64,000 bases of DNA from Gemmatimonadota bacterium (GCA_030747075.1 JASLLL010000004.1:70891-134890), one strand, 5' to 3'. Positions 6,600 to 64,000 are shown, counted from the first letter of the stretch. Numbers and translations are program-made. The notes: a model not told the origin generated them from the sequence alone.

Positions 6600-6611
6600 T
6601 GGCCCAATCCT

Positions 6612-6638: not shown

Positions 6639-6660
6639 AACTCCCCCCCCCGGAGGATTC

Positions 6661-12678: not shown

Positions 12679-12729
12679 GGGACCGGAACCCGGGGAGGAC
12701 CCCCCCGGAACCTCCGGTCCCTTTCTCTT
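12679..12729 (+). terminator. Hairpin with pyrimidine tail, probable terminator
   Basis: GGGACCGGA...TCCGGTCCC followed by TTTCTCTT. Confidence 0.5.
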
Positions 12730-43363: not shown

Positions 43364-44353
43364 TCAGTCCGGGGAGGAGGCGGCCGCCGCGCAGCGCCGA
43401 ACGATGTCTCCCGCGGGCAGGATGGACGATACGCCCCCCGCGCTCTTCCCGGCCTGAAGGTAGGCGCGCGAGTCGGCGCGGCCTTGCGCGGCGCGCTTCT
43501 GGCTCCATACTGAACGCAGCGTGTAGATGGTTCGCATGAGGTGTTTCGTTCGGGGATGCCGAAGGAGACGGCGGGCGACCGGTCCCGCATGAAGCCCGGT
43601 GCGTTCCACATGAGGCGTTCGGATCACCGAGACGGGAACACCGGTGAGGCGCTCCGTCAGCACGATGTCGTCCGCGGTGGCAGCGATGATGGCGGCCTTG
43701 TAGTCCGCCGGGGCGGTGCATTCCTCCGTGACGATGAAACGCGTCCCCATCTGCACGCCCGCGTAGCCCGCCCGGATGGCGTCGGCGAAGTCGTGCTCCG
43801 TGCCGATCCCACCCGCGCAGACAAGCGGAACACCGAGTCCGGCCAGCTCTGCGAACAGATCACCGGCGGTGCGCCCGCCCGCGTGTCCCCCGGCGCGGTT
43901 GTTCACGCAGATCAGGCCGTCGACTCCCGCGGCAAGGCTCTTCTCAGCCCAGCGCAGTTCGGTGACATCGTGGTAGACGATGCCGCCTGCCTCCCTGGCG
44001 CGCTCCACGACCCACCGGGGGTTCCCGAGGGAAGTGACGAAGAAACGCACGCCCTCTTCCAGCGCGATATCGATCCAGCTTTCCATGCGCTGCCGGTACT
44101 TCCTCGAGGACGATTCGATGAGCGCGTTCATGCCGATCGGGCGGGAGGTGAGCGACCGGATATGGCGGAGGCCTTCGCGGAAGTCATGCCCGTGGACATA
44201 GGTGAGCGACACCGGCTGCACCACGCCGATCCCGCCCGCTTCCGAGACCGCGGCCACCAGTTCCGGATTGCTGCACGGGTACATCGGGCCGCAGATGAGC
44301 GGCGTGTCGATGCCGAGGTGGCGGGTGAGCGGCGTGTCGATGAGCGCGGTCAT
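43364..44353 (-). CDS. Nitronate monooxygenase / FabK-like FMN oxidoreductase
   Basis: [26 protein letters not shown]. Confidence 0.88.
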
Positions 44354-46380
44354 GCGGGGCCGAGCCTCCACCGCGCGGTCGTTACCGCGACGACCTGGCC
44401 GCCCGAGTCGAGGATTTCGGCGGTGGCGTCGAAGTCCGCGCCTTCCGGCGGGACGCGCGGCGGTGTGCAGCGGGCCACGGCGGTCAGCGGCCCGCGCGCC
44501 TTCTTGCGGTACTCGGTGGAGAGATGCGTGACGATGCCGCGGACATCGGCGGGAAGAGAAGCCAGCGTGGCGAGCCCGCTCGTGACTTCGCCGAGATTGG
44601 TGAGAGCCACGGCGTGGACGGATCGCAGATGGTTGCGAACGCGCCGGGAGTCTCGCAGGCGCACAGTGGCACGGCCGGGGGCCAGTTCGACAACGCGCGG
44701 TCGGATCGTGTGCGTGTAGGGTACGCGCTTGCCGAGAAGGCGGCTGAAGAGCCACGCGCCACCGGGGTAGGGGCGCAAGCGGTTCCAGAGCGAGAGAAGT
44801 TCGTTGTCGGCGGTCTGAGCCGCGACCGTGGCCGCGGGAACAGGCGTGGCGCCTTCGTCTCCTTCGCTTTCGGCGGAAGTCGGCGCGGCCCAGTCCCGAC
44901 AGCGGGTGACGGCCTTCGCCCAGCGGGCATGGCGTCGATTCCTCTCCTCCTCCGGGACGGCGGGTTCGTGGCGGCGCGCCATGCGCCACTTCTCGGCGAG
45001 TTCGTCGCGATTGCTCCAGAAGCCGACCGCCAGTCCTGCCAGGTACCCGGCGCCGAGTGCCGTCGTCTGCGTGATCTCGGGGACCTCCACGGGCACGCCG
45101 AGGAGATCGCTCTGGCACTGCATGAGGAATCGATTGCCGACCGCGCCCCCGTCCACGCGAAGCTCGGTCAGGTCCACGCCGGAGGCGCGCCGCATGGCGT
45201 CCATGGCGTCGCGCGTCTGGTGGCATATGCTCTCCAGCGTTGCCCGCGCGATGTGCGCGCGCGTTGTGCCGCGCGTGATCCCGACGATCGTCCCGCGTGC
45301 GTAGGCGTCCCAGTGCGGGACGCCGAGCCCCGTGAGCGCCGGGACGAAGAAGACATCGCCGGTGTCATCCACGGAGGCGGCAAGCGCCTCGCTTTCGGCC
45401 GCGGTCTCGATGATGCCGAGGCCGTCGCGCAGCCACTGGACGGCGGCGCCCGTGATGAAGATGGCGCCTTCGAGCGCGTATTCCACCGGCTCCTCACCGA
45501 TCTTCCACGCGATCGTCGAGAGAAGTCCCTCCCGCGCGGGCGCGGGGTGATGTCCCGTGTGGAGCAGCAGGAAGGAGCCGGTGCCGTAGGTGTTCTTCGC
45601 CATGCCGGGCCGGTGGCACGCTTGCCCGAAGAGCGCGGCCTGCTGGTCCCCCGCGATTCCGGACACGGGGATGCGTCTCCCGAGGAATGCGCCGGGGTCG
45701 GTCTCTCCATAGACGGCGGACGACGGTTCGACTTCGGGGAGAATGGCACGCGGAATATCGAGCCGCTCCAGAATGTCGGAATCCCAGTCGAGCGTGCGGA
45801 TATTGTAGAGGAGCGTGCGCGAGGCGTTGGAGGGGTCGGTGACATGGCGAGCGCCACCGGTGAGCTTCCAGACGAGCCAGGTGTCGATCGTGCCGAAAGC
45901 GATCTCGCCGTTCGCACAGCGGGCGGGAAGGCCGTCGTGATGGTCGAGCATCCAGCGGATCTTCGTCGCGGAGAAGTACGGGTCGATGAGGAGGCCGGTC
46001 TTCTCGCGCCAGATCGGCTCCAGCCCTTCCCGCTTCAGTTTGTCGCAGAGCGGCGCGGTTCGTCGGTCCTGCCAGACAATGGCGCGGGAGATGGGGATGC
46101 CGGTTGCGCGATCCCACAGGAGCGAGGTCTCGCGCTGGTTGGTGATGCCGATGGCGCGAATGTCGTCCGGGGATGCTCCCGCATCGGCGAGCGCCGCCTC
46201 CACCACGGCCAGCGTGACACGCCACAACTCCTCCGCGTCGTGTTCCACGCGTCCGGGCAGGGGATAGTGCTGCGTGAACTCGGAGGAGGCGCGGCCGCGG
46301 ATGGAACCCGCATGATCGATCACGAGCACGGTGGATGCCGTGGTGCCCTGATCGATGGCGATCACGAATCCGTCGCTCAT
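44350..46380 (-). CDS. glpK: Glycerol kinase fused to a C-terminal hotdog-fold (DUF4442/PaaI-like) domain
   Basis: [45 protein letters not shown]; open frame continues through a linker into [16 protein letters not shown]...[10 protein letters not shown]. Confidence 0.9.
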
Positions 46381-46513
46381 GGGGGTCCTTTCGCAACGGC
46401 GGATGCACCGCGCACCCGCGAGAGAGATATTGCCGGAAGGAAGTGGAGAGCGGTAGCTTCGATTTGTCCGGAAGGATCTTCCGCTTGCTCGGGCGCTGCC
46501 CGGGGAAAGGAGA

Positions 46514-47203
46514 GTGCCGCTCGTGCTGCCGTTTCTCTCCGGCCTGGCCGCGGGTTCGCTGCATGTAGTCTCCGGGCCGGACCATCTGGGCGCGCTGGCA
46601 CCGATGGCTGCGGGCCGTCCGGCGCGGGCGGTGGGAGTGGGCCTCTTCTGGGGATTCGGCCATGGAACGGGCGTGGTTCTCTTGGGGCTGGCCGGAGTGC
46701 TGGGTCGTTCCTTGATTGATGTGGATGCCGTGAGCGGTTGGTCGGAGCGCATCGTGGGCGTGGTGCTGGTGGCGGTGGGTCTTTGGGCGATTCGTCGATC
46801 ACGAACGCTCGTTGTGCACGCGCACGGGCACAAGCACCTGCATGGCGAAGGCGACGCGGGCGGCGGCCATGAGCACATTCATGTTCACCTGGGCGACACA
46901 GATCACGCGCGCGGCCGGAAGCACAGTCACCGTCGCCGCGCGGCTTGGGGAATCGGCGTGCTGCACGGAGCTGCGGGAACCGGCCATCTGGTCGGTGTCG
47001 TGCCTTCGCTGGCGTTGCCGGCGGGACAGGCGTTAGTCTTCCTTTCGGCGTATCTTGTTGCCGCGACCGTGTCGATGGGGGTGTTCGCCGGATTGCTCGG
47101 GAGCCTTACGGCACGACTCGGCCCGCGCGCTCTTCGGCCGATCACGCTTGTGAGCGGTCTCTTTGCCCTGGCGGTCGGGGTTGTGTGGATGGTGAGAGGA
47201 TGA
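46514..47203 (+). CDS. Nickel/cobalt transporter (NicO/UreH-like)
   Basis: [17 protein letters not shown], His-rich loop, GVLHGAAG. Confidence 0.85.
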
Positions 47204-51046: not shown

Positions 51047-52069
51047 CTAGCAGATTCTGGGGAGCATCTCCCCGGTGAGCATATCCACGATTCTCTCCCC
51101 GCCGATGGAGGTGCGCAGCGTGACCCGTCCGGGCGGACCCTCGCGCACTTCTCCGATGCGACACGCGTCCGCGCCCGCCGCGTGTGTGCGGAGGATGCGC
51201 AGAGCACGGTCGGCATCCGCTTCAGGGACCACCGCGATCATGCGTCCCTCGGACGCAAGATAGAGCGGATCGAATCCCATGATCTCGCACGCTCCGCGAA
51301 CTCCCGGGCGCAGCGGGATGCGCTCCTCGTCGAGGCGGATGGCGACGCCGCTGGCGGATGCGATCTCCCCCAGGACCGTGGCCACTCCCCCCCGCGTGGG
51401 GTCGCGCAGTGCGTGCAGCGGGATGGCGTCGTCCGCGAGTGCGCGCACCAACCCGTTCACGGGCGCGACATCGCTCTTCACTTCCCCGTCGAGCGAGAGC
51501 CCGGCGCGGAGCGTCATGAGGCAGATCTCGTGATCGCCAAGTGTTCCGCTGGCGAGAATGGCGTCGCCCGGGCGGGCGCCGGTTCCCGTGGGGGTGATCC
51601 CGTCGGGAAGGATGCCGAAGCCCGCGGTGGTGATGAAGATCCGGTCGGCGTGCCCGCGCGGCACCACCTTTGTGTCTCCCGCGACCACGGTCACTCCCGC
51701 CTCCTTCGCGGCGGCGGCCATGGAGTCCGCGATTCGCACCAGGTCGGCGACGGGAAGGCCTTCCTCCAGGATGAAGCCCGCCGTCAGCCAGCGCGGCTGT
51801 GCGCCGGTCATGGCCACATCGTTGACGGTTCCGCAGATGGCGAGGCGTCCGATGTCGCCGCCCGGGAAGAAGACGGGGTCCACGACGAAGCAGTCCGTGC
51901 TGACGGCGAGTCGCCCGGCGGGGATGTCGCCGACGAGCGCGCCGTCGTCCAGGACATCCAGCGCGGCGTTGGAGAAGCGCGGGAGGAAGACAGCCTCCAC
52001 GAGATCGTGCGCGAGCTTCCCGCCGGAGCCGTGGGACAGGAGAATGTGTTCGTCAGTGAGAGTCGGCAT
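51047..52069 (-). CDS. hypE: Hydrogenase maturation protein HypE
   Basis: HGSGGK, DDGA, CGTVND, GDTKVV, RDPTRGG, C-terminal LPRIC. Confidence 0.95.
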   Translation of the reverse strand: MPTLTDEHILLSHGSGGKLAHDLVEAVFLPRFSNAALDVLDDGALVGDIPAGRLAVSTDCFVVDPVFFPGGDIGRLAICGTVNDVAMTGAQPRWLTAGFILEEGLPVADLVRIADSMAAAAKEAGVTVVAGDTKVVPRGHADRIFITTAGFGILPDGITPTGTGARPGDAILASGTLGDHEICLMTLRAGLSLDGEVKSDVAPVNGLVRALADDAIPLHALRDPTRGGVATVLGEIASASGVAIRLDEERIPLRPGVRGACEIMGFDPLYLASEGRMIAVVPEADADRALRILRTHAAGADACRIGEVREGPPGRVTLRTSIGGERIVDMLTGEMLPRIC

Positions 52070-52684
52070 GGTGGCCTCCGTCCGGGCCGTACTTGAAGTG
52101 TGCGGCGCAGGTTCCCTCGCTGGAGACCATGCACGCTCCCACGGGGTTTTCCGGCGTGCAGGCGGTTCCGAAAAGCGGGCACTCCTCCGGCGCGGCCAGT
52201 CCCTGCAGAATCTGTCCGCAGATGCAGCCCTTGTGCTCGCGAGTGGGCTCCACCTCTACGGGGATCCGGCGGTCGGCGTCGAAATCCGCGAACTCCTCCC
52301 GGATGGCAAGTCCACTTCCCGCGATGACGCCGATGCCCCGCCACCATGCGTCGGCCGGTTCGAAGACGCGGTGCAGGATTTCCAGTGCACGCGGATTTCC
52401 TTCTTCGCGGGCAATCCGTGCGTACTGGATCTCGACCCTTGCATGGCCGCGAACGGTCTGCGTGCAGAGCATGTCGATTGCGTGGAGAACATCCAGCGGT
52501 TCAAAGCCCGCGATGACGACACCGAGCCCGTGCTGCCCGGCAAGGAAGCGGTACGGACGCGCGCCGATGATCGTGGAGACATGGGCCGGGCCGAGGAAGC
52601 CGTCGAGCTTCAGTTCTCCCGTGGCGATGGCGGCCAGCGCTTCCGGAACCGTCTTGTTGGCACCGCTCACGAAGTAGTTGGTTG
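52053..52684 (-). pseudogene. hypD: 3' half of HypD (N-terminus missing)
   Basis: DGFLGPAHVS, GFEPLD, CICGQIL, CPLFGTACTP, GACMVSSEGTCAA present; CGTH and GPGCPVC motifs absent. Confidence 0.85.
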
Positions 52685-53032
52685 GTCGTCCGGCTCTTTC
52701 AGGGGTCGATCGCAACGATTCTCGGCAGGATTGTGGCCGAGGACATCAGTGGAGCGTGGCGGCGGTACCTGGCATTCGCCATTTATGTGGTGGGCGTGTC
52801 CGGGGGTGTTCGTGTCTGGGATCTGGAGAAGTACATCACGCCCCGGCCCGAAGAGGCGGAAGCCATCGTCCTCAATGCGGAGCGGTGGACGCTGGAAGTC
52901 TACCGAACGATCATCGGCACGCTTCAGGGTGTGGCGTGGATGCTGCTGGTGTTCTTCCTGTTCGCGCTGGTGGCGTATGTGATCGTTCGCGGACTGGAGG
53001 CGAAGCGGACGACTCCGACAGCCGGGGAGTAG
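52682..53032 (+). CDS. Small membrane protein, probably 5'-truncated
   Basis: AWRRYLAFAIYVVGVSGGVRVWDLEKYI and TM helices; no RBS; starts exactly at the hypD break. Confidence 0.55.
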   Translation: MVVRLFQGSIATILGRIVAEDISGAWRRYLAFAIYVVGVSGGVRVWDLEKYITPRPEEAEAIVLNAERWTLEVYRTIIGTLQGVAWMLLVFFLFALVAYVIVRGLEAKRTTPTAGE

Positions 53033-53040
53033 ATCCCCGG

Positions 53041-53712
53041 TTATTCCTCCACGGGAGTAGGTGGCACGGACCCCTGAACGTACCGGAAGACCCATGTTGC
53101 CGCCGCGGCTCCGGCAATGGGTGCTGCGATGTACAGCCACAGCGCGTCCCACTGGCCGGAGACGATTGCCGGGCCGAGTGAACGCGCCGGGTTCATGGAC
53201 GCACCGGTCAGCGGCCCGCCGAGAAGCGCTTCCCAGGTGACCGTTCCGCCGATGGCGACTCCGGCCATGATCCCCTTTTCCATGTGCCCGGTGGACACAT
53301 TGAGGATGACGAAGACCAGGAAGAAGGAGAGAGCCGTCTCCACCACCAGAGCCTGGGGTACCGTCACCGACGGCAGTGTCGCGCCCAGCGTCTCATGCTC
53401 GGGAAACAGCACGCGCAAGAGAAGGGCGGCCGCGATCGCTCCTGCCAGCTGGCTTCCGATGTACGGGAGAACCGCCTTCCCTTCCAGGCGTCGGGCGAAC
53501 AGGAAGCCGAGCGTGACCGCCGGGTTGATGTGCGCTCCGGAGATGTTGCCGATTGAGTAGATCATGGCCATGACGACCAATCCGAACACCACGCATACGC
53601 CCAGGTGCCCCAGCGTTCCCGGGAACAAGTCGTTGACGATGGCGGCTCCGCAACCCGCAAACACCAGCGCGAATGTGCCGACGCCCTCCGCGATGAACCG
53701 GTTTCCGTTCAT
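53041..53712 (-). CDS. MIP/aquaporin family channel
   Basis: ISGAHINPAVT and ASMNPARSLGP (two NPA motifs); AGGAG RBS. Confidence 0.93.
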   Translation of the reverse strand: MNGNRFIAEGVGTFALVFAGCGAAIVNDLFPGTLGHLGVCVVFGLVVMAMIYSIGNISGAHINPAVTLGFLFARRLEGKAVLPYIGSQLAGAIAAALLLRVLFPEHETLGATLPSVTVPQALVVETALSFFLVFVILNVSTGHMEKGIMAGVAIGGTVTWEALLGGPLTGASMNPARSLGPAIVSGQWDALWLYIAAPIAGAAAATWVFRYVQGSVPPTPVEE

Positions 53713-54089
53713 GAGTCTCCTCGCGCCCGGTGAGAGGGCGATCCGGCGGCTTCCGTAGTCTTCGCGGCCTGCTGAAACGAGCGCGCTCCTGCGGTCGCGT
53801 CCAGCCCGTACTTCTCCCATGCGGCAATCAGCGACGGGCCGCCCCCTTCCGCCCATGCGGAGTCGTAGACGCGGAGCCCTTCGGTGAGCCACGCCTCGTC
53901 GCACTCTTCCCACCGGTTCAGCAACGCGGGGATGTTGTGGACGGCCTCCATGAGGTCCGCCAACCGCGCGCTCTCCCCTGCGGACAGGCCCTTCTCCTGC
54001 CCACGGTGTGCGGTCGCGCGGGCTTCGAGGATGGCGCGGGACAGAACTTCGAGACAGGCGGAGCGTTGAGGCTCCGGTGCGACAGACAT
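53709..54089 (-). CDS. Hypothetical protein
   Basis: ADLMEAVHNIP motif; ATGA overlap with the MIP gene. Confidence 0.6.
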   Translation of the reverse strand: MSVAPEPQRSACLEVLSRAILEARATAHRGQEKGLSAGESARLADLMEAVHNIPALLNRWEECDEAWLTEGLRVYDSAWAEGGGPSLIAAWEKYGLDATAGARSFQQAAKTTEAAGSPSHRARGDS

Positions 54090-54281
54090 GGGCGTTCCCC
54101 TTCGATGGGCGTGCCGTACGGAGTCATGGCATGGATTGGCCGGTGGATGAAACCGGAGCACTGGCGGCAGTGTACGGGGTATCCATTCCCCGCGCCAGCT
54201 TCGCCTTGCCCGCGCGCCGCTGCCGCCGGGCCGTCCCCGCCGCCGTCGCCGTCCTTGCTGGAATCGTGCTACCTTCGCCCC

Positions 54282-56996
54282 ATGAACTCAACCCCGCTCT
54301 CTTTCGTGCTGGATGGTGTGGATCGCGACGTGGCGGTCGAATCCGGCGAGTCGCTTCTCGAGGTCCTTCGCGAACGCTGCGGCGTCCGTTCCGTGAAGGA
54401 TGGATGCAGCCCGCAGGGTCAGTGCGGGTGTTGCCTCGTGCTGGTGGACGGTTCGCCAAAGCCCGCCTGCGCCGTCCCCGCCGCGAAAGTGGAGGGAAGG
54501 ACCGTCACGACACTCGCCGGTGTGCCGCAGGCGGATCGGGATCTTCTGGCGCTTTCCTTTGCCGCCGCGTCGGGAGTCCAGTGCGGGTTCTGCACGCCGG
54601 GGATTGCCCTTCGGGCGTACGCACTGGTGGCGCAAGACCCGGCGCCCGCCCGATCGACCATCGCGAAGGCGCTGCACGGTCACCTCTGTCGCTGCACGGG
54701 CTACACGAAAATCCTCGACGCGATCGAGCTCTTTGCGGCCGTTCGACGCGGCGACGCATCGCCCCCGGAACCGGCGCGTTCCGGTGGCGCGGGCGAAGGC
54801 GTGGGCGTGCGGCTGCGGAAGTACTCGGCCGCCGAACTCACTCTCGGGGAGCGTCCGTTTGTCGACGATCTTTCACCGCCCGGCGTGCTTCACGGGGCTG
54901 TGGCGCTGTCCGCGCATGTCCGTGCGCGCGTTCTCTCCATCGACACCACGGAAGCGCGTGCGCTGCCGGGGGTGCACGCCGTGGCGACCGCTGGCGATGT
55001 CCCCGGAGAGCGTTTCTACGGGCTCATCGAGCGCGACTGGCCGGGGCTGGTCGCGCCGGGAGAGGAAGTGCGCTGTACAGGCGACATTCTCGCCGCCGTC
55101 GCGGCCGACAGTCGGCGGATCGCCCGGGAGGCCGCCGCGCTCGTGCGCGTGGAGTACGAACCGCTTCCGCCGGTGCTGGACACGAAGGCGGCCCTCGCCG
55201 AATCCGCCCCGCGTGTCAATCCGGCCAACCCGAATCTTCTTTCGCGTACGGTGGTCCGCCGGGGTGACGCCGCGGCGGCGATGGCGGGTAGTGCGCACAC
55301 GGTGGCCGGGGTCTGGCGCACGCAGCGGATCGAGCACCTCTTCCTGGAACCGGAGAGTTGCGTGGCGGTTCCCGCTTCGGCGAATCGCGCTCGTCGCGCA
55401 TCCAACCCAACCTCCACGCCGCGTCTTCACCTCTACACCCAGGGGCAGGGCGTCTTCGACGACCGAAGACAGGTCGCGGCCTTCCTCGCGATGGATGAAG
55501 ACGACATCTTCGTCGAGCTTGTCCCGAACGGCGGCGCGTTCGGCGGCAAGGAGGACATGTCGATTCAAGCGCACGCGGCGCTGCTGGCGATGATGACGGA
55601 TCGGCCGGTCAAGCTCACGCTGTCGCGCGGCGAGTCGGTTCGCGTGCACCCGAAGCGGCATCCCATCGAACTGCGCTACGAGGCAGGGTGTGACGAGGAG
55701 GGTCGCCTCACGGTCGTGCGGGCGCGCATGGTCGGGGACACCGGCGCGTATGCGTCGGTGGGTGCGAAGGTGCTGGAGCGCTGCGCGGGGCATGCGTGCG
55801 GTCCGTACAAGGTTCCGTGCGTGGATGTGGAGGCGGTGGCCGTCCACACGAACAACCCGCCCGCGGGTGCCATGCGCGGATTCGGCGCGAACCAGGCTTC
55901 GTTCGCGATGGAAGGCGTGATGGATCTGCTTGCCGAGAGGGCGGGGCTGGATGGCTGGGAGATGCGTCGCCTGAACGCGGTGGAAGTCGGCGATGCCGTG
56001 ACTACCGGACAGGTGCTCCACAAGTCGGTCGGGATGGTGAAAACGCTCGACGCCATCAAGCCGCACTGGGACGCCGCTCGCGCTGCCGGATTGTCTGCGG
56101 GCATCGCGTGCGGCATCAAGAACTCCGGCATCGGCAACGGCGCCGTGGAGTGGGGCAAGGCGCGACTGGTCGTGGAAGATGACGGTACCGTTTCCATACT
56201 GAACGGATTCACGGAGATGGGGCAGGGCTTGCTCACGGTGCTCGTCCAGATTGCGGTGGAGGCCACCGGGCTTCCGGCGTCCGTCTTCCATCCCCGCGTG
56301 GATTCCACCTTTGCGCTCGACTGCGGGCAGACCACCGGGTCCCGCGCGACGCTTCTCGGTGGCCGGGCGGTGAAGCGTGCCGCGGAGAAACTCGCGGGAG
56401 CACTGGTTGAAGGGCACAGCCTGCGTGACATGGCCGGGCGTGTGTTCGCGTCCGACATTGTGGTGGACGACACGGTCGCGCCCGACCCGTCCGGGATGGC
56501 GACGGATATCAAGACGCACACTTCCTACGGCTTCGCCACGCAACTGTGCATTCTGGATGAGAATGGACGCGTGGAGCGCTTTGTTGCCGCGCATGATGTC
56601 GGGCGGGCGGTCAATCCCGCACTCTGCGAAGGGCAGATTGAGGGCGCGGTTCACATGGGCCTGGGGTATGCGCTCACCGAAGAACTGCCGTGCCCCGAAG
56701 GCCGGCCGGTGACAGAGAAGCTTCGGGAAATCGGGGTCCTGCGCGCGGCGGATATGCCGGTGGTGGAGGTGATTCTCGTGGAGGATCCGGAACCGGAGGG
56801 TCCGTACGGCGCCAAGGGAGTGGGCGAGATCGGTCTTGTGCCGACGGCGGGTGCGGTGGCCGGTGCTCTTCACGCCCACGACGGCATTCGCAGGACGGAT
56901 CTGCCCATGCGCGACTCTCCCGCCGCGCTGGCCATGAGCGTGCCGAGGCCGCGTCGTCGTGTGCGTACCGGGGACGATGCGGGGGGGACGCCGTGA
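54282..56996 (+). CDS. Selenium-dependent-type xanthine dehydrogenase (fused 2Fe-2S and Mo-binding domains; XdhD-like)
   Basis: CSPQGQCGCC, QCGFCTPG, CRCTGY, FGGKEDMSIQ, AMRGFG, TEMGQG, KGVGE; extended -10 TGcTACCTT 6 nt upstream. Confidence 0.88.
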   Translation: MNSTPLSFVLDGVDRDVAVESGESLLEVLRERCGVRSVKDGCSPQGQCGCCLVLVDGSPKPACAVPAAKVEGRTVTTLAGVPQADRDLLALSFAAASGVQCGFCTPGIALRAYALVAQDPAPARSTIAKALHGHLCRCTGYTKILDAIELFAAVRRGDASPPEPARSGGAGEGVGVRLRKYSAAELTLGERPFVDDLSPPGVLHGAVALSAHVRARVLSIDTTEARALPGVHAVATAGDVPGERFYGLIERDWPGLVAPGEEVRCTGDILAAVAADSRRIAREAAALVRVEYEPLPPVLDTKAALAESAPRVNPANPNLLSRTVVRRGDAAAAMAGSAHTVAGVWRTQRIEHLFLEPESCVAVPASANRARRASNPTSTPRLHLYTQGQGVFDDRRQVAAFLAMDEDDIFVELVPNGGAFGGKEDMSIQAHAALLAMMTDRPVKLTLSRGESVRVHPKRHPIELRYEAGCDEEGRLTVVRARMVGDTGAYASVGAKVLERCAGHACGPYKVPCVDVEAVAVHTNNPPAGAMRGFGANQASFAMEGVMDLLAERAGLDGWEMRRLNAVEVGDAVTTGQVLHKSVGMVKTLDAIKPHWDAARAAGLSAGIACGIKNSGIGNGAVEWGKARLVVEDDGTVSILNGFTEMGQGLLTVLVQIAVEATGLPASVFHPRVDSTFALDCGQTTGSRATLLGGRAVKRAAEKLAGALVEGHSLRDMAGRVFASDIVVDDTVAPDPSGMATDIKTHTSYGFATQLCILDENGRVERFVAAHDVGRAVNPALCEGQIEGAVHMGLGYALTEELPCPEGRPVTEKLREIGVLRAADMPVVEVILVEDPEPEGPYGAKGVGEIGLVPTAGAVAGALHAHDGIRRTDLPMRDSPAALAMSVPRPRRRVRTGDDAGGTP

Positions 56997-58153
56997 CTCC
57001 GCTCGCTCGACTGCACGCGGCAGGGCTGGACGCTACCGACTGCCAGGTCCACGGCGGTTTCGTCAACGCCCACACGCACATTTACTCCGCGCTCGCACCG
57101 ATGGGGATGCCCGCGCCGGAACCGCCGCCCTCGGACTTTCTGGAGATTCTCCAGCGCGTGTGGTGGCGGCTCGACCGGGCACTCGATGCGCAGAGCCTTC
57201 GCGCTTCGGCAAGACTCTACGCGGCGGAATCACTCCTTTTCGGCACGACCACGCTCATTGACCATCACGAATCGCCCGGCATGATCGACGGTTCGCTCGA
57301 CATCCTCGCGGACGCCTGCGAGGAAATGGGCATTCGCGCCGCCCTCGGGTACGGCGCCACAGAGCGCAATCGGGGACGCATCGAAGCGCGGGAGGGACTG
57401 GAGGAATGTCGTCGCTTCCTCACCTGGAGGGGCGCGCCGCAGCGGGAGTCCGACGCGTCGCTGGAATCCCCGCCGCTTCTTCGCGGATTGGTTGCGCTCC
57501 ATGCCTCATTTACCGTCTCCGATGACTCGCTGGTCGAAGCGGCCGCGCTCTGTCGCGAACTGGGTGCGCCGATGCACATCCATCTGGCGGAAGATGCCGC
57601 CGATGTCGCGGATGCCCGCAAGCGCGGTCACGCGGGACCGCTGGAGCGACTCCTTGCGCACGACGCGCTTCCCGCGGGATCCATCCTTGCGCACGGCGTG
57701 CACCTGGATGCGGATCAGGTGAGAATGGCACGCGACAACGGGCTGTGGATCGTCCAGAATCCGCGCTCGAACCGGGGGAATCGCGTCGGGTATCCCGGGG
57801 CTCTGGCCGCCGCCGACCGCGTGGCGCTCGGAACGGACGGGTACCCTTCGGACTCCGCCGCGGAGATTGCGGCGCTTCTCGAAGAGGCTGCCCTGCACGG
57901 CGATGACATGGCCTCCGCCCGGCGCCGTCCGGATGCGGGGCGGGATCTGGCCGGTGCCCTTTTCGGCGAACTGCGTGACGCGTGCGCGGTGGAAAAGACA
58001 GGAGTGGTCCGCCAGTTGATTGTGAATGACCGCGTGGTCGTTCGGGATGGTCGGCTGGTGGCGGAAGACATCGAGGCTCTTCGGGCGGAGGCGGCAGCGG
58101 AAGCACCCACGCTCTGGGAGCGCATGGCCGTTCAGGACGAGCGGTTTTCCTGA
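56993..58153 (+). CDS. ssnA: SsnA-like metal-dependent amidohydrolase
   Basis: NAHTHIYSAL, GTTTLIDHH, LHASFT, HIHLAE, LAHGVH, LGTDG. Confidence 0.82.
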   Translation: MTPLARLHAAGLDATDCQVHGGFVNAHTHIYSALAPMGMPAPEPPPSDFLEILQRVWWRLDRALDAQSLRASARLYAAESLLFGTTTLIDHHESPGMIDGSLDILADACEEMGIRAALGYGATERNRGRIEAREGLEECRRFLTWRGAPQRESDASLESPPLLRGLVALHASFTVSDDSLVEAAALCRELGAPMHIHLAEDAADVADARKRGHAGPLERLLAHDALPAGSILAHGVHLDADQVRMARDNGLWIVQNPRSNRGNRVGYPGALAAADRVALGTDGYPSDSAAEIAALLEEAALHGDDMASARRRPDAGRDLAGALFGELRDACAVEKTGVVRQLIVNDRVVVRDGRLVAEDIEALRAEAAAEAPTLWERMAVQDERFS

Positions 58154-58171
58154 AGAGGGAGGCGAATCAGA

Positions 58172-59665
58172 ATGGCCAAGCTGGGACTCGAGCGGGAGAT
58201 CGTGGACCGCAATGTCTATGATCGAACCGTGGATCGATTTGCGGAAGCGTCGATCGTGCTGCCTCGATTTTCCGAACTGGCGGACCCCTCGACGATTCCC
58301 GTGTCCGTGGTCGAGGCTCTTGCGGAAGTGGACCCCGACGCCCCTCATCCGCTCAACCTCTTCCGCGTTCACTGGCATAACTCCTCGGACCGCCGCGGGT
58401 TCACGGAGATTCCGGACCATCTCGTGCTGCCCACTGAACTGACGGGTGTCGCCGCTCCGATTGTCGTCGCGCTCGGAAACCGATTCCCGATGATCCGTGC
58501 GCACAAGGTGCTGGCCGCGTACGCCTGCCTGGTGCCGCGCCTGATTACCGGGCAGTTCGACCCTACCCGGCATCGCGCGGTCTGGCCGTCCACTGGCAAC
58601 TATTGTCGCGGTGGCATCGCCATCTCCCGCATTCTGGATTGCCATGGCGTGGCGGTCCTTCCGGAGGGGATGAGCCGGGAGCGCTTCGAGTGGCTGGAGA
58701 AGTGGGCGACGGACCCGGCGGACATCGTGCGCACGCCCGGGAGCGAAAGCAATGTGAAGGAGATCTACGACGAGTGCGCTCGTCTGGATGAAGACCCGGA
58801 CACGATCATCTTCAACCAGTTCAGCGAGTTCGGAAACCACCTGGCGCACTTTCTGTGTACGGGTCGTGCGCTGGAGACCATCCATCGCTCGCTCGTGGAG
58901 AAGACGCCGGGGTGGACAGCCGCGGCGTTCGTGTCGGCGACCGGGTCCGCCGGGACCATTGCGGCCGGGGACTATCTGAAGGAGCGGTTCGGGTCGAAGA
59001 CCGTGGCGGTCGAAGCACTGGAGTGCCCGACGCTTCTCTCGAATGGTTTTGGCGAACACAACATTCAGGGTATCGGCGACAAACACATTCCGCTCATCCA
59101 CCATGTGATGAATACGGATTTCGTGGTCGCCGTCTCCGACCGCGCGACCGACTCGCTGAACCATCTCTTCTCGTCGACCGCCGGGCGGGACTACCTGCTG
59201 GCGCGACGCGGACTCTCCCCCGAGATGGCGGGGATGCTCCCGAACCTCGGGATTTCCGGGATCTGCAATGTTCTGGCAGCCATCAAGACGGCGAAGTACC
59301 TCCGTCTCGGTGCGACCGACGCCATCTACACCGTGGCGACCGACGGCGCGGAAATGTATGCGACGGAGCGTACGCGCACCGCCGAGCGGGACTTCCCGGG
59401 CGGGATCGACTCCGTTTCGGCGGCGGAAGCGTTCGGTCGGTATGCGCTGGGCGCGGGCGTGGACCATCTCCGGGAACTCACGCGTCCGGAACGGGACCGC
59501 GTGTTCAATCTGGGGTACTTCACCTGGGTCGAGCAGCAGGGTGTATCCCTTCACGACTTTGAACGCCGACGCACGCCGGAGTTCTGGCTGGGTCTGCGAG
59601 AGTGGATCCCCGCGTGGGACGACATGATCGACGCGTTCAACGCACGCGCACGCGGGAAGCCGTGA
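58172..59665 (+). CDS. Fold-type II PLP-dependent enzyme (cysteine-synthase-like, uncharacterised subfamily)
   Basis: AHKV (PLP Lys), [20 protein letters not shown]. Confidence 0.85.
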
Positions 59666-61083
59666 CCAGCGGTCCGTTCCGGATGGTGTGCGCCGGGTGC
59701 GGTGCGGGGGTCCCGCCGGACGCTCCGCATCCGTTCCGCTGTCCCGAAGGACCGGCCGAAGCGGGAGATGTCGACCATGTCCTGGTGAGACTCCTGGACC
59801 CGGAACGCGTGGCCCCGCCTGACGAAGACCCCCAACCCTTCGTTCGCTATCGCACGCGCTTGAGGTCGTACCATCTGGCGCTCGCGCACGGGATGGACGA
59901 TGCCGCGTTTGTGTCTCTCGTTCGCGAACTGGATGATGCCGTCGGGGCCGTCTGCGGAACCGGGTTCTTCGTGACGCCGTTCGCGCTCTCCCGGCAGGGT
60001 GCGGAGGCCGTCGGACTTTCGTCCGGAACGCTGCGCATCAAGGACGAAACGGGTCATGTGGGCGGGTCGCACAAGGCGCGCCATCTCTTCGGGATTCTGC
60101 TGCAGTTGGAGGTCGCCCGCCGCACGGGCCTGTTCTCCACGAAGGAGAAGGCGCCGCTCGCGATCGCCAGTTGCGGGAATGCGGCGCTGGCTGCCGCGAT
60201 CGTCGCGAAGGCGGGGGGGCGAGCGCTCACGGTCTTCATCCCGACGGATGCGGATCCCGCAGTGGTGTCGGCGCTTCGCGAGCACGATGCGTCGCTCACG
60301 ACCTGCGCACGAGAAGAAGGGGTGCCGGGGGATCCGTGCGTGACGCGGTTCCGGCAGGCGGTGGAGGGCGGCGCGCTTCCATTCACCTGCCAGGGACCGG
60401 AGAATGGACTTGCGATTGAGGGCGGACACACACTGGGTTGGGAGATGGCCGAAGTGCTCGCGGCCGAGGAGGGCCGTCTGGGTCATGTGCTGGTGCAGAC
60501 AGGCGGCGGCGCACTCGCCAGCGGAGTCGCGGCGGGACTGGCGGAAGCGGCGGCGCTCGGTGTGCTGCCCCGCCTCCCGCGTGTTCACACGGTGCAGACG
60601 CGTGGCGCGTTTCCGCTGGAGCGGGCGTGGGACCGCGTGGCGTCGCGTGCGCTGGAAGCACTGCACGCGGAGGGTGCGTTGCCGCACGCGATCCCGGAGG
60701 GCGCCGCCGCGCGCGCGGATCTCCTGCGAACACACGCGGACTGGGCCGCCGTCGCTACGGAACTTGCGCACGCGGTCACGCACCGGGCGGAATACATGTG
60801 GCCGTGGGAGGGAACTCCCCGCAGCATCGCGACCGGGATTCTCGACGACGAGACCTACGACTGGTTCGCCGTCGTGTGCGGAATGATCCGAACGGGCGGT
60901 ATCCCGGTGATCGTGAGCGAGGAGACGCTGGCGGATGCAAATGCCATTGCCCGGGAAGCGGTTGGAATCCGCGCGGACGCGACCGGTTCCGCGGGTCTTG
61001 CCGGGCTGATGCGGCTTGTTCGCGCGGGGGAGATCGGGGCCGAAGCCGATGTGGCGGTCCTCTTCACGGGAACGCTGCGCTGA
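59662..61083 (+). CDS. Threonine-synthase-like PLP enzyme with N-terminal Cys motif
   Basis: CAGC..C, IKDET..GGSHKAR, ASCGNA, QTGGG, LFTG. Confidence 0.82.
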
Positions 61084-61101
61084 TCCCGGGCCGAGGTCCT
61101 G

Positions 61102-62292
61102 CTAGCGGCGGACGATTCCCCGATCCAGACAGCGGCCCAGAGCGGCGGCGGGATCCGCGAAACGCGTGTGCAGGATCATCGACGCGATCACGAACGGCTT
61201 GTGCGCCGCCTCCTGATAGGTGCCGAGCCGGGCTTTCTCGAACACCGACTCCGACACTTCTCCCGACTCGCAACTCACGCCCGTGATGTCCGCGGGCAGA
61301 CAGTGCATGTAGGAGGCCTGACCGTTCTTCGTGCGTGCCATCTTCTCTTCGGTGCACTCCCAGTCCTGGAAACGCGCATTCTCGGCAAGGCACTCCCGTT
61401 CGAGTTCCTTCAGCGCGTTCGTTTCCCCGGCGCGGAGGAGTCGGGTCCTTTCGTGCATGACGCGAACCGGCGCCCAGCTCTTGGGGTAGACGATGTCCGC
61501 ACCTTCAAACGCTTCGTCCATGGAGTGGACCACCGAGAAGGCGCCCCCGTTTGCCGCGGCGCCCCGGCGCGCGGCGTCCAGCGGTTCCTCTACGAGGCCG
61601 TATCCTTCCGGGTGCGCCAGGACGACATCCATTCCGAAGCGCGTCATGAGAGACACGACACCTTGCGGGACCGACAGCGGCTTTCCGTAACTGGGCGAGT
61701 AGGCCCAGGTCATGGCGATTCGCTTCCCGCGCAGTTCGTCCAATCCGCCGAAGGTCTCCATGAGGTGCCGAAGGTCGGACAGGCTCTGCGTCGGGTGGTC
61801 CAGATCGCACTGGAGGTTGATCACCGAAGGCCGCTGTGCCAGCACGCCCTCGCGCCGACTCTCTTCCACGGCTTCCGCGACTTCCTTCATGTAGGCGTGT
61901 CCCTCGCCCAGGAACATGTCGTCGCGGATGCCGATGGTCTCTGTGAGAAACGATATCATCGTTGCCGTCTCACGCACGGTCTCCCCGTGCGCAATCTGCG
62001 AAGTTCCCTCGTCGAGTTCTTCCGTCATGAGCCCGAGAAGATTCGCGCCGGACCGGAAGGAATAGCGCGTGCGTGTGGACTTGTCCCGGAAGATGGAGAG
62101 GGCGAGGCCGGTGTCAAAGAACCGCGCCGAGATGTTCGCCCGGTGGAGATCGCGCAGGATTTCCGCGCCGAGCAGGACGCTCCCCAGTGAGTCGTCGTCC
62201 ACATCCCAGGTTCGCAGGAAGTCCCCGTCGTGGAGGCGGTTCTCCAGCGTCTCCATGGATCCGATGAGCGGGCGGATGTCGTTGTGGGTCAC
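61102..62292 (-). CDS. ygeW: Knotted carbamoyltransferase YgeW
   Basis: FRDKSTRTR, LQCDLDHPTQ, WAYSPSYGKPLSVPQG, YMHCLPADI; AGGAGG RBS. Confidence 0.92.
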   Translation of the reverse strand: MTHNDIRPLIGSMETLENRLHDGDFLRTWDVDDDSLGSVLLGAEILRDLHRANISARFFDTGLALSIFRDKSTRTRYSFRSGANLLGLMTEELDEGTSQIAHGETVRETATMISFLTETIGIRDDMFLGEGHAYMKEVAEAVEESRREGVLAQRPSVINLQCDLDHPTQSLSDLRHLMETFGGLDELRGKRIAMTWAYSPSYGKPLSVPQGVVSLMTRFGMDVVLAHPEGYGLVEEPLDAARRGAAANGGAFSVVHSMDEAFEGADIVYPKSWAPVRVMHERTRLLRAGETNALKELERECLAENARFQDWECTEEKMARTKNGQASYMHCLPADITGVSCESGEVSESVFEKARLGTYQEAAHKPFVIASMILHTRFADPAAALGRCLDRGIVRR

Positions 62293-62306
62293 GGGGTCCT
62301 CCTGCG

Positions 62307-63527
62307 TTATGCGGGTACGGTGTCGAGATACACGAGCGGGAAGGTTGCGTAGAATGCGGCCGCTTTCGTGAGGTGTTCCACCGGGCACTGATCTTCGGGG
62401 CTGTGTGCGTGCGCCTCGTCGCCGGGGCCGAATCCGAATGTCGGGACGCCGAAAAGACCGCGCGTGGCGATCCCGTTGGTCGAAAAACCCCACTTGTCGA
62501 TGACAGGTTCTGCGCCGAGGACGGACCTTGCCGCCTGTGCGGCCGCGACGATGACCGGGTCATCCTCCTCCAGCACCCAGGTGGGATAGTACTTCTTCGT
62601 GGGATAGGTGAGGCCGGTGTAGGCCTCCCGCGCATACTCCAGCACGGTGACGACCGCCCCTGATGCCGCGACCCCGGGGAGGCTCTCGATCTCGGCGACC
62701 GCGCTCTCCAGTGTCTCACCGCGCGTAAGGCGACGGTCGAGATGGATGGTGCAACTGTCGGCCACGGCGCACAGCGAAGGCGAAGTGGAACGGATGTCGG
62801 AAATGGTCACGGTGCCTTTGCCGAGAAAGGGGTCCGCGGTCGCGGCAAGATCCTCGTTCAGCTTCTCGATGTCCGCGATGATCGGCGCCATGTGGTACAC
62901 CGCGTTCACCCCGCGTTCCGGCGCGGACCCGTGGCAGGAAAGGCCCTGAGTGCGAACTTCCATCTCCATTCTGCCCCGATGCCCGCGGTACACACCCAGC
63001 AGCGTGGGTTCCGTGATCACCACGACCTCCGGCTCCAGCACTTTCTCGCGGAGAATGTACTGCCAGCAGAGTCCGTCGCAGTCCTCTTCCAGCACCGTGC
63101 CGGTAATCCACAACTGGTAGTCGCCGTCCAGACCGAGTTCGCGGATGATCCGCGCCCCGTGGACCATGGAGGCCATTCCGCCTTCCTGATCTCCCGCCCC
63201 GCGTCCATAGACCGTGCCATCGCGAAGCTCCCCCCGGTAGGGATCGCGCGTCCATGTGGAGGGATCTCCCACGCCGACCGTGTCCAGGTGCGCATCCATT
63301 GCCAGAACGCGCTTTCCGGAGCCGATCCGGCCGAGGATGTTGCCCATTCCGTCGATACGGATCTCATCGAACCCGACGCTCTCCATTTCCTGCCGCACGC
63401 GCTCCACCACCGCGCGCTCATCCGCGCTCTCGGACGGAATGGCGATCATGTCGCGCAGAAACCGGACCATGTCAGGGGTGTACTCTTCGGCAAGCCTTGC
63501 GATGGCAGCGGCGTCAGGGAGCGTCAT
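62307..63527 (-). CDS. ygeY: M20 family hydrolase YgeY
   Basis: MDAHLDTV, GRGAGDQEGG, EEDCDGLCW, GHRGRME, SCHGSAPERG. Confidence 0.92.
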   Translation of the reverse strand: MTLPDAAAIARLAEEYTPDMVRFLRDMIAIPSESADERAVVERVRQEMESVGFDEIRIDGMGNILGRIGSGKRVLAMDAHLDTVGVGDPSTWTRDPYRGELRDGTVYGRGAGDQEGGMASMVHGARIIRELGLDGDYQLWITGTVLEEDCDGLCWQYILREKVLEPEVVVITEPTLLGVYRGHRGRMEMEVRTQGLSCHGSAPERGVNAVYHMAPIIADIEKLNEDLAATADPFLGKGTVTISDIRSTSPSLCAVADSCTIHLDRRLTRGETLESAVAEIESLPGVAASGAVVTVLEYAREAYTGLTYPTKKYYPTWVLEEDDPVIVAAAQAARSVLGAEPVIDKWGFSTNGIATRGLFGVPTFGFGPGDEAHAHSPEDQCPVEHLTKAAAFYATFPLVYLDTVPA

Positions 63528-63603
63528 GGCAGTCTCCGATTGCGTGGATACCCCGCGCTCATCGCGGGGGAACCCGTGAATACACATCCGACCCGGCGGG
63601 TTG

Positions 63604-64000
63604 TCAAGCCGTCCCGGTCGCGATCCAGTTCGAAGCCCCGCCGCGGAGGACCGCTTCGGAGATTCTCACCACCAGATGGAATGGCCGAAGGTCCACTTCG
63701 CCCGCCGCATGACCGGAGACCGTCCCCGCGATATCACGCGGGTCAAATCGCAGCGCGAACCCCGTTCCCTCGTAGAGCGCGCCTTCGGGGTTCACCTCCA
63801 CGAGGACTTCCTGCCCGGCGATACGAGCTCGCACGCGGATCCCGCCACCCCCCGGGTCTCCCGAAACCCCCACTGCGTGAAACCCGTCGGCGGGGGCCGC
63901 TTCCGCGAACGCCTCCGCGCTTCCGAAGAACCGGGGCTTTGCCAGATACGGCCCGCCATCCTCGGGACAGAACACATCGCAGTTTCCGCAGTCGTTGCAG
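63604..64000 (-). CDS. ygfK: 3' end of a YgfK-like Fe-S oxidoreductase (partial, runs off window end)
   Basis: CNDCGNCDVFCPEDGGPYLAKP 4Fe-4S motif typical of the YgfK C-terminus; adjacent to ygeY and ygeW. Confidence 0.7.
   Translation of the reverse strand, partial: CNDCGNCDVFCPEDGGPYLAKPRFFGSAEAFAEAAPADGFHAVGVSGDPGGGGIRVRARIAGQEVLVEVNPEGALYEGTGFALRFDPRDIAGTVSGHAAGEVDLRPFHLVVRISEAVLRGGASNWIATGTA

Follow-up and report, generated by a model that had tools for sequence, protein, structure and literature searches.

Results

The window is the whole analyzed stretch of 64,000 nucleotides, and its last part (54282-64000) carries seven genes: xdh, ssnA, PLP1, PLP2, ygeW, ygeY and ygfK. A sequence-only reading had described this gene set as a variant anaerobic purine-degradation cluster. 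All seven genes were confirmed, and their assignment to a variant of the reductive route of urate breakdown via 2,8-dioxopurine was supported. The plus-strand block xdh-SsnA-PLP1-PLP2 faces a convergent minus-strand block that reads, from the right, ygfK, ygeY and ygeW. Both xdh and ssnA, and likewise PLP1 and PLP2, are coupled by GTGA overlaps, in which the GTG start of the downstream gene overlaps the stop of the upstream one.

The xdh gene (54282..56996, plus strand) starts with the ATG at 54282 and encodes a Se-dependent type protein of 904 aa beginning with MNSTPLSF, which scored 882.5 bits against TIGR03311 (cut-off 830.45) and contains the 2Fe-2S and Mo-cofactor domains Fer2, Fer2_2, Ald_Xan_dh_C, MoCoBD_1 and MoCoBD_2 of Pfam. 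Its product is presumed to be a urate to 2,8-dioxopurine reductase of the XdhD/DOPDH type. The following gene (56993..58153, plus strand) encodes an SsnA-type amidohydrolase of 386 aa, whose match to NF005540 covers model positions 50-321 only and, at 267 bits, stays below the cut-off (444). When the protein was aligned, the HxH, HHES, HASFT, HxHxAED, AHGVHL and GTDG motifs were kept, including all metal-ligand motifs, and deletions were seen within the beta-sandwich parts. Catalytic motifs and synteny are both kept, and the protein represents a short subfamily.

On the minus strand, ygeW (61102..62292) has a GTG start downstream of an AGGAGG site and encodes a knotted carbamoyltransferase of 396 aa with 60% identity to E. 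coli YgeW (NF005538, 605.3 bits against 453; TIGR03316, 580 against 500). The ygeY gene (62307..63587) encodes an M20 ureido/carbamoyl-amino-acid hydrolase with 55% identity to E. coli YgeY (TIGR03526, 558.4 bits against 321.5); its product has 426 aa when counted from the first ATG, and the ATG at 63527, giving 406 aa, is probably the better start. Only the 3' end of ygfK (63604..64000) lies in the window, the whole gene of 649 aa extending to the window-equivalent coordinate 65553. This short form matches TIGR03315 at model positions 4-452 and 923-965 only (398.8 bits against 835) and is composed of an FMN/DPD-like N-terminal half and a 4Fe-4S tail with Pfam Fer4 domains. The GltD-like FAD/NAD(P)H domain is missing, and residues 418-904 of E. 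coli YgfK are without a counterpart.

An acs gene is coupled upstream of ygfK and is found, together with T9SS-like genes, in the 8.6 kb by which the contig extends past the window. Neither hyuA nor ygeX is found there, so the earlier suggestion that both may lie beyond the window did not hold. The proposed genome search did recover homologues of hyuA, carbamate kinase, selD and yqeC. A HyuA-like D-hydantoinase is encoded on contig C61 (TIGR02033, 618.6 bits against 393), directly preceded by a PreT/GltD-like gene whose match to YgfK spans positions 441-837; a carbamate kinase adjoins YqeC on contig C37 (TIGR00746, 378.8 bits against 358), and SelD is a Sec-containing protein. A canonical ygeX was found neither in the cluster nor elsewhere in the genome, where the best NF006058 score was 26.5 bits against 276 and tblastn with E. 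coli YgeX returned no match, and the phylum, Candidatus Eiseniibacteriota, likewise lacks YgeX in all 12 of its genomes. Since YgeY, YgeW, hydantoinase, carbamate kinase and the other enzymes are all encoded, every step to 2,3-diaminopropionate (DAP) appears to be covered, with YgeX as the sole gap.

Between ssnA and ygeW lie the two PLP enzymes, PLP1 (58172..59665, plus strand, 497 aa, CysK fold) and PLP2 (59662..61083, plus strand, 473 aa, ThrC-like). With 37.2 and 100.4 bits against PF00291, respectively, both exceed the Pfam gathering score of 35 and belong to the fold-type II PLP superfamily, as does YgeX. The earlier observations that both keep the PLP lysine and that neither looks like YgeX were borne out. 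The candidate Schiff-base lysine K112 of PLP1 (AHKV) and K138 of PLP2 (GSHKAR) are invariant, in contexts that differ from that of YgeX, and both proteins fall below the curated thresholds for YgeX, CysK and ThrC. Against the YgeX model NF006058 (cut-off 276), PLP2 scored 19.1 bits over 45 residues, and PLP1 had no match to the YgeX/DpaL models NF006058, TIGR03528 and TIGR01747. We found no paper describing either family in the literature.

In the AF2 models (pLDDT 82 for PLP1 and 86 for PLP2), the core folds match those of known enzymes with Foldseek TM-scores, normalised to the target, of 0.7-0.8. The top folds for PLP1 were CysK, CBS and beta-cyanoalanine synthase; hhalign against E. coli CysK gave 95.7%, and the Asn (PSTGN) loop, NQF, the Gly-rich phosphate loop and Ser362 at the pyridine N are kept. 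PLP1 differs from these enzymes in carrying a conserved extension of roughly 100 aa at either terminus, neither with a PDB match. Assignment as CysK or CysM was rejected on the family threshold (TIGR01139, 63.1 bits against 350.95) and on the length of 497 aa with extensions, compared with about 300-330 aa without them. For PLP2, the top folds were ThrC, threonine deaminase and serine racemase. Its alignment with ThrC spans the Lys and Gly loops, and Thr or Ala stands where the YRIEG motif of ThrC has its phosphate-binding Arg; PLP2 also has Cys171, which is invariant, and the acidic segment DDETYD, and its N-terminus, unlike that of YgeX, carries an additional Cys3His ribbon that is Zn-ribbon-like. 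Threonine synthase was rejected by family criteria, as the scores are below threshold (NF006050, 69.7 bits against 303; TIGR00260, 19.6 against 167) and the phosphate-binding Arg is replaced.

PLP1 and PLP2 form a conserved adjacent pair across many phyla, and of 72 loci, 45 have PLP2 following PLP1. Among the 27 pair loci with good flanks, 24 have one or more purine-cluster genes no further than 10 kb away; SsnA is near 21, XDH 16, YgeW 15, YgeY six and HyuA four. The pair thus does co-occur with ssnA, xdh, ygeW and ygeY elsewhere, and locus L080 reads XDH-SsnA-PLP1-PLP2-YgeW-YgeY-CK-YgfK-HyuA without YgeX. Within Candidatus Eiseniibacteriota, PLP1 and PLP2 are either both present (7 of 12 genomes), in the same convergent cluster, or both absent. 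Many pair-bearing clusters contain two carbamoyltransferase-like genes. Locus L015 holds PLP1, PLP2 and YgeX together, and the pair and YgeX are also found in three other genomes, a coexistence that counts against replacement.

Counted on its own, PLP1 is found in at least 600 species. Without PLP2, it is found beside a CoA-transferase and a luciferase-like (LLM) oxidoreductase, or beside a BisC-like reductase, and these non-purine contexts imply that the PLP1 reaction is not purine-specific. Where PLP2 is missing, a true YgeX adjoins PLP1, as in Alphaproteobacteria, and the YgeX-linked PLP1 clade is nested within pair-type PLP1 sequences. In the proposed phylogenetic profiling, YgeX was present in 4 of 49 pair genomes and missing from 45, counts of absence that MAG incompleteness inflates, compared with 11-13 of 29 genomes in which PLP1 lacks an adjacent PLP2. 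Across the genomes that carry PLP1, PLP2 is anticorrelated with YgeX (p = 3e-4 to 3e-5), a relation partly confounded by phylogeny as the PLP2-less genomes are mostly Pseudomonadota.

Taken together with the YgeX genes found beside PLP1 where PLP2 is lacking, the anticorrelation makes PLP2 look like a YgeX substitute, and the best reading of these sequence comparisons is that PLP2 is a non-orthologous replacement of YgeX. Replacement, one of the two earlier proposals for the PLP proteins, is thus supported for PLP2 but not for PLP1. PLP1 as a plain YgeX substitute was rejected, given that it adjoins true YgeX in Alphaproteobacteria and that L015 has all three; PLP1 appears to add a function without a counterpart in the E. 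coli pathway.

Discussion

This gene set varies the known oxygen-independent cluster for uric-acid breakdown, and its new part is the PLP pair, which sits where YgeX would be expected. The E. coli pathway is encoded by ygeW-ygeX-ygeY-hyuA-yqeA and ygfK-ssnA-ygfM-xdhD (PMC12507026; bioRxiv 10.1101/2025.04.24.650524). Homologues of the Se-type XdhD/DOPDH, the FMN half of YgfK, SsnA, YgeW and YgeY are shared, as are the hydantoinase, the carbamate kinase and the selenium trait (SelD, YqeC). In contrast with E. coli, YgfM is lacking, the FAD/NAD(P)H domain is missing from YgfK, SsnA is a shortened version, neither hyuA nor carbamate kinase is linked to the cluster, and the host belongs to an environmental candidate phylum rather than being a gut anaerobe. 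Clostridioides difficile has another variant cluster, with UacX and UacY (PMC12507026). Like UacX, the reductase here has no FAD domain, which implies another donor such as ferredoxin or a separate subunit; it is a truncated YgfK and not a PydA homologue, YgeW is retained instead of being swapped for UacY, and the PLP pair would take the place of YgeX.

We lean toward the interpretation that this region encodes the core of the reductive urate/purine degradation pathway in a conserved environmental version, in which the PLP1-PLP2 pair performs the terminal conversion and PLP2 takes the role of YgeX. Homology and synteny support the Se-type XDH, the short SsnA, YgeY, YgeW and the short YgfK-type reductase, which, comparable to UacX of Clostridioides, would probably receive its electrons from ferredoxin or from a PreT-like flavoprotein that is encoded separately. 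Judging from its context, the translationally coupled pair may yield pyruvate and ammonia from a C3 diamino acid or from an amino-ureido acid. PLP2, whose ThrC-like fold is without the phosphate-binding Arg and has acquired the invariant Cys and DDETYD, likely stands in for YgeX, with which it shares its place in the pathway logic and alternates as the neighbor of PLP1. The CysK-type PLP1 would form an aminoacrylate intermediate and could carry out an additional beta-elimination or beta-replacement, or handle one stereoisomer or one ureido intermediate, without an E. coli equivalent. Counting against this interpretation, YgeX alone is enough for DAP deamination, which leaves the second enzyme of the pair without explanation.

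Alternatively, the pair would open a different branch instead of replacing YgeX, leading to another end product than in E. coli or to another order in which the ureido groups are removed. PLP1 would then use a beta-ureido amino acid as its substrate, for instance splitting off urea from 2-amino-3-ureidopropanoate, or catalyze a beta-replacement on DAP to give serine, cysteine or another product, and PLP2 would process what it releases. We consider such a branch unlikely but the most serious competitor. Consistent with it, PLP1 keeps all CysK beta-replacement motifs and, co-occurring with genuine YgeX, must do something else; YgeY (6/27) and HyuA (4/27) are seldom near the pair, many clusters have a second carbamoyltransferase-like gene, and the two published pathway models conflict over which enzyme takes off which ureido group. 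Nevertheless, DAP should form in this genome and its relatives, as they encode YgeY, YgeW and hydantoinase, all pathway functions except YgeX have a gene, and the anticorrelation between PLP2 and YgeX indicates equivalence.

It is very improbable that the pair is not catabolic and mobilizes sulfur or selenium, for instance as a cysteine/selenocysteine lyase or synthase type, for Mo-cofactor maturation of the Se-dependent hydroxylase. SelD occurs in 40 of 49 pair genomes and in 2 of 14 controls, which leaves some room for a role linked to selenium, although clusters that use a Se-dependent XDH would show this enrichment in any case. The CysK-like nature of PLP1, the Sec-containing SelD of this genome and the BisC-like reductase, another molybdoenzyme, that adjoins PLP1 in Alphaproteobacteria would also fit. 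On the other hand, the pair adjoins SsnA more often than XDH, its co-transcribed neighbors in Chloroflexia are ygeW and carbamate kinase, and at many loci it has no Mo enzyme inside 10 kb; ten PLP1 loci with CoA-transferase and LLM oxidoreductase lack one as well, and the 66-70% identity of PLP1 homologues between phyla suits a flux-carrying enzyme more than a maturation factor.

Canonical thrC is lacking in this genome (best TIGR00260 score 30.9 bits against 167, with 14/14 controls above the cut-off), which leaves room for a biosynthetic role of PLP2 here. That the pair represents divergent housekeeping genes that are neighbors by chance, PLP2 as threonine synthase and PLP1 as cysteine or cystathionine synthase, is nonetheless hardly credible: PLP2 is the most ThrC-like protein of the genome, but it scores 19.6 bits on TIGR00260 and lacks the phosphate-binding Arg, no clear homoserine kinase was found in the genome either, suggesting threonine auxotrophy, PLP2 is missing from 5 of the 12 genomes of the phylum, a canonical CysK/CBS-like gene lies at C55:98019-99434, and the association of the PLP2 family with PLP1 and purine genes holds across phyla and extends to large genomes of 3-11 Mb, which presumably carry canonical thrC.

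Returning to PLP2 in the role of YgeX, we tentatively propose that PLP1 and PLP2 are two new activities which, outside the gut, make up the standard last module of reductive purine degradation. In this view PLP2 is a diaminopropionate-type lyase derived from ThrC, and PLP1 a general partner of DAP lyases, whether PLP2 or YgeX, with an undescribed reaction on beta-substituted alanines. If so, the module would span soil, freshwater and marine bacteria, many of them from lineages that are mostly aerobic, among them the Actinomycetota, Chloroflexota, Acidobacteriota, Myxococcota, Gemmatimonadota and Eiseniibacteriota.

Gene organization of the cluster

In the 66% GC window (C44:70891-134890), GC3-based gene calling could not tell true genes from shadow ORFs, and gene identities were based on family searches instead. 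The plus strand of this contig, one of 61 in a host genome of 2.67 Mb and 65.5% GC, carries xdh (54282-56996; 882.5 bits vs a cut-off of 830 for TIGR03311, 'selenium-dependent XDH'), an ssnA-like gene (56993-58153; NF005540, 267 bits vs 444), PLP1 (58172-59665; 497 aa) and PLP2 (59662-61083; 473 aa). On the minus strand, ygeW (61102-62292; 605 bits vs 453, with a GTG start behind AGGAGG), ygeY (62307-63587; 558 bits vs 321) and ygfK, the start of which lies beyond the window end, converge on these genes. The converging layout had been described in the sequence-only reading, and both the ORF listing and the family scans bore it out. GTGA overlaps are present at both the xdh/ssnA and the PLP1/PLP2 junctions, which couples the four plus-strand genes translationally. 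Since hypE, hypD and an aquaporin gene lie just upstream of xdh on the minus strand (51047-52715 and 53041-53913), the cluster begins at xdh. Scanning of 53800-64000 for promoters and terminators gave no excess over chance.

The SsnA-like protein retains all metal-ligand motifs and has deletions in the beta-sandwich parts; it forms a group, denoted short SsnA, with homologues from other phyla. When the 8.6 kb of contig past the window was included, the ygfK product was found to be 649 aa vs 1032 aa in E. coli. This short YgfK keeps the FMN/DPD-like N-terminal half and the 4Fe-4S tail, and is devoid of the GltD-like FAD/NAD(P)H part. The stop of an acetate-CoA ligase (acetyl-CoA synthetase) gene, acs (C44:136443-138392, corresponding to 12444-14393 of the fetched stretch L004; 1031 bits), overlaps the start of short ygfK, and acs appears to be co-transcribed with ygfK-ygeY-ygeW. 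T9SS PorU/PorZ-like genes follow past acs (L004 15799-19485). Elsewhere in the window, a second molybdenum hydroxylase set of the XdhABC/CoxLSM type (about 37113-40671) comprises large, 2Fe-2S and FAD subunits with 28-43% identity to E. coli XdhA, XdhC and XdhB, and an 842-aa ORF (44350-46878, minus strand), whose start may be over-extended, fuses an FGGY sugar-kinase domain to DUF4442.

Sequence and fold of PLP1 and PLP2

PLP1 only just passed PF00291 (37 bits) and scored 63 vs 351 bits with the cysK model. Its homologues, about 499 aa in length, are 66-70% identical across Chloroflexota, Actinomycetota, Acidobacteriota, Myxococcota and Pseudomonadota, and the mean column identity of their alignment is 78%. 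The AF2 model of PLP1 (pLDDT 82) matches cysteine synthases, CBS and beta-cyanoalanine synthase over the core only, while the conserved N- and C-terminal extensions (about 100 aa each) had no match in the fold search of this model. In the hhalign comparison with E. coli CysK (95.7%), PLP1 retains the Asn loop (PSTGN), the NQF motif, the Gly-rich phosphate loop and a Ser in contact with the pyridine nitrogen, and the invariant, correctly spaced K112 is probably the Schiff-base lysine. These motifs mark PLP1 as a predicted beta-replacement or beta-elimination enzyme that forms an aminoacrylate. An OrtB-like identity (aminoketopentanoate thiolase) was also considered and rejected, being unsupported by NCBIfam, and the PDB sequence and fold matches were all CysK/CBS.

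PLP2 gave 70 bits vs 303 with NF006050. Its best PDB sequence match is Aquifex ThrC (E = 8e-17), and its fold matches are ThrC, threonine deaminase and serine racemase. The N-terminal Cys3His ribbon is invariant, as is Cys171 directly before the Gly-Asn loop, and the lysine is found in GSHKAR. An acidic segment of 10 residues takes the position of IGNP in ThrC, and the phosphate-binding Arg of ThrC is replaced by Thr or Ala. Considering the sub-threshold score and these residue differences, PLP2 does not seem to be a threonine synthase. At the level of sequence, the likeness of both proteins to YgeX, the diaminopropionate ammonia-lyase that ends the E. coli pathway, goes no further than the shared superfamily, as had been suspected from the window.

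Remaining pathway genes in the host genome

The published pathway comprises XdhD, YgfK, SsnA, HyuA and YgeY/YgeW plus YqeA and YgeX. The proteins of the E. coli cluster served as tblastn queries against the whole genome, followed by NCBIfam scoring. The suggestion that hyuA and ygeX may lie beyond the window did not hold for the 8.6 kb past its end, which contain ygfK, acs and the T9SS-like genes; a D-hydantoinase/dihydropyrimidinase is encoded on contig C61 instead (TIGR02033, 618 bits). Directly 5' of it, a PreT/GltD-like flavoprotein (C61:11108-13836; 5085-7840 of the fetched stretch L088) matches exactly the YgfK segment that is absent from short YgfK (model positions 441-837). The two C61 genes may be a split YgfK partner beside the 'missing' HyuA, or may be part of the pyrimidine reductive pathway; Pfam searches of the surrounding ORFs gave no informative match.

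Of the other genes proposed for a genome-wide check, those for carbamate kinase, SelD and YqeC are present. Carbamate kinase (TIGR00746, 379 bits) is clustered on C37 with the selenium-cofactor protein YqeC and a purine-type deaminase (C37:9133-12285), and a BMP-family ABC transporter also adjoins it. Some 7 kb ahead of the window, selD (C44:62873-63799) contains one in-frame TGA, which indicates a selenocysteine-containing selenophosphate synthetase. YgeX was found nowhere in the genome (NF006058, best 26 bits; tblastn, no match). Hence, every published step except YgeX has a candidate gene in this genome, and PLP1 and PLP2 are the sole cluster genes left without a role.

Distribution and gene context of the PLP1-PLP2 pair

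Using one genome per species, PLP1 was detected in at least 600 species, and 80 loci were fetched for context, onto which reference proteins were mapped. PLP2 lies directly 3' of PLP1 in 45 of the 72 loci with enough downstream sequence. Among the 27 pair loci with 8 kb or more of flanking sequence at either end, one or more purine-cluster genes are present in 24: SsnA is near the pair in 21, XDH in 16, YgeW in 15, carbamate kinase in 9, YgeY in 6, YgfK in 5, HyuA in 4 and YgeX in 1. The pair thus co-occurs with ygeW and ygeY elsewhere, as the sequence-only reading requires. A 28th pair locus, L007, stands outside these 27 since PLP2 overlaps the PLP1 stop there and was missed by the adjacency rule. 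In a Rubrivivax MAG (L080), the complete string XDH-SsnA-PLP1-PLP2-YgeW-YgeY-CK-YgfK-HyuA is present and YgeX is lacking, and de novo clustering of all ORFs neighbouring the PLP1 loci revealed no further frequent partner. A class-level survey of SsnA at E <= 1e-50 recovered mostly paralogous deaminases (about 175-200 bits) and few true SsnA.

The phylum of the window is represented in the collection by 12 genomes of one family, including G060 (contig C26, JBQTGV010000026.1; locus L027). PLP1 and PLP2 occur together in the same seven of the 12, and YgeX in none. Short SsnA adjoins the pair in six of the seven, and in the seventh, G060, a partial copy is located at the contig start. The convergent XDH-SsnA-PLP1-PLP2 / YgeY-YgeW-YgfK layout recurs wherever contigs of the phylum are long enough. 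In Chloroflexia (L008, L010, L013, L014, L021 and L037), PLP1-PLP2 is followed after a gap of about 1.1 kb by a YgeW-like gene and carbamate kinase. Two OTCase-family ORFs were seen in 12 loci, consistent with a second carbamoyltransferase in place of YgeY in those lineages.

In a profile search covering 1.84 billion representative proteins, 624 PLP2 clusters (50% identity) were obtained at E <= 1e-30, and no PLP1-PLP2 fusion was present among the best 150 of the 624 representatives. A 665-aa PLP1 match, P0012, was considered as a Rosetta-stone fusion and proved to be an internal duplication or assembly artefact.

PLP2 and YgeX as probable alternative partners of PLP1

At the whole-genome level, YgeX exceeded the cut-off in 4 of 49 pair-bearing genomes, and in 11 of the 29 genomes that have PLP1 but no adjacent PLP2 (13 when two near-threshold or truncated matches are counted). 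PLP2 is encoded elsewhere in 4 of these 29, none of which has YgeX. Fisher tests of PLP2 against YgeX among PLP1-bearing genomes gave p = 3e-4 to 3e-5, although this anticorrelation is partly confounded by phylogeny, as the PLP2-less genomes are mostly Pseudomonadota, and MAG incompleteness adds absences. In nine loci, a YgeX-like gene is located within 10 kb of PLP1, and PLP2 is missing from eight of them (p = 8e-4); two such neighbours that were scored reached 460-470 bits vs the 276-bit cut-off. The gene order in Hoeflea is ABC transporter-PLP1-BisC-like reductase-YgeX-M24 peptidase. In the alphaproteobacterial loci L055, L077, L081 and L052 (about position 10001), a polar-amino-acid ABC transporter, PLP1 and a BisC-family S/N-oxide reductase occur in this order with no PLP2, near a genuine diaminopropionate ammonia-lyase and M24 and M20 hydrolases, with urease in L077.

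In the PLP1 tree, the YgeX-linked group falls inside the pair-type sequences, sister to proteobacterial pair-type PLP1. A third, non-purine context, PLP1-CoA-transferase A/B-luciferase-like (LLM) oxidoreductase, forms a separate well-supported clade (L059, L063, L064, L066, L068, L069, L079, L083, L084 and L087).

We read PLP2 and YgeX as alternative partners of PLP1, which makes PLP2 the better candidate for a step like that of the diaminopropionate lyase, and we read the function of PLP1 as different from that of YgeX. The earlier proposal of non-orthologous replacement of YgeX therefore gains support for PLP2, which alternates with YgeX beside PLP1, but not for PLP1, which is found beside YgeX.

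Proposed pathway and alternative roles of the pair

By homology, the Se-type XDH would reduce urate to 2,8-dioxopurine, and short YgfK would reduce the pyrimidine part, presumably with a PreT-like subunit or ferredoxin as electron donor. Short SsnA and the unlinked hydantoinase would then open the rings to yield 2,3-diureidopropionate, the ureido groups of which would be removed by YgeY and YgeW, with carbamoyl phosphate passing to carbamate kinase to form ATP. In the last step, PLP1-PLP2 may turn diaminopropionate, or an amino-ureido acid, into pyruvate and ammonia. Several schemes would be compatible with two enzymes. Each could act on one stereoisomer or one could epimerise, and PLP2 has a Cys where serine racemase has its re-face base; beta-replacement could be followed by deamination; or PLP1 could eliminate urea from a beta-ureido amino acid, which would fit because YgeY and HyuA are often absent near the pair elsewhere.

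A selenium- or sulfur-mobilising role for the pair is possible, given that 40 of the 49 pair genomes encode SelD. However, such enrichment is expected anyway for clusters with Se-dependent XDH, and the association of the pair is closer with SsnA and YgeW than with XDH. That the two families as a whole serve housekeeping amino-acid biosynthesis is unlikely, even though canonical thrC was not found in the host genome, where TIGR00260 reached at most 30.9 bits; all 14 control genomes were positive. The PALP-family set of this genome consists of PLP1, PLP2, a CBS-like protein (C55:98019-99434) and TrpB (C55:26839-28794) only. Homoserine dehydrogenase (hom, C22:162733-163821) and trp genes are present, with no clear homoserine kinase in the genome, and the organism would be either a threonine auxotroph or a user of an unrecognised threonine route.

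Significance of the variant cluster

It was not until 2025 that the reductive urate pathway was worked out, and this was in gut bacteria alone. Full-text literature searches brought up the pathway papers of that year along with reviews, and no description of the PLP1-PLP2 pair. Li et al. took every PF00291 protein encoded next to SsnA to be 'YgeX', and another published survey searched with Clostridium proteins; the variant would thereby have been merged or missed. The cluster is a variant of the known pathway with two uncharacterised, widespread enzyme families, and the data show that a different candidate terminal module, PLP1-PLP2, dominates in environmental phyla. Assigning reactions to PLP1 and PLP2 would make the maps of purine-nitrogen recycling in soil and aquatic bacteria complete and annotate thousands of genes now labelled 'cysteine synthase' or 'threonine synthase', and the two may possibly serve as alternative enzymes for engineered urate-degrading strains.
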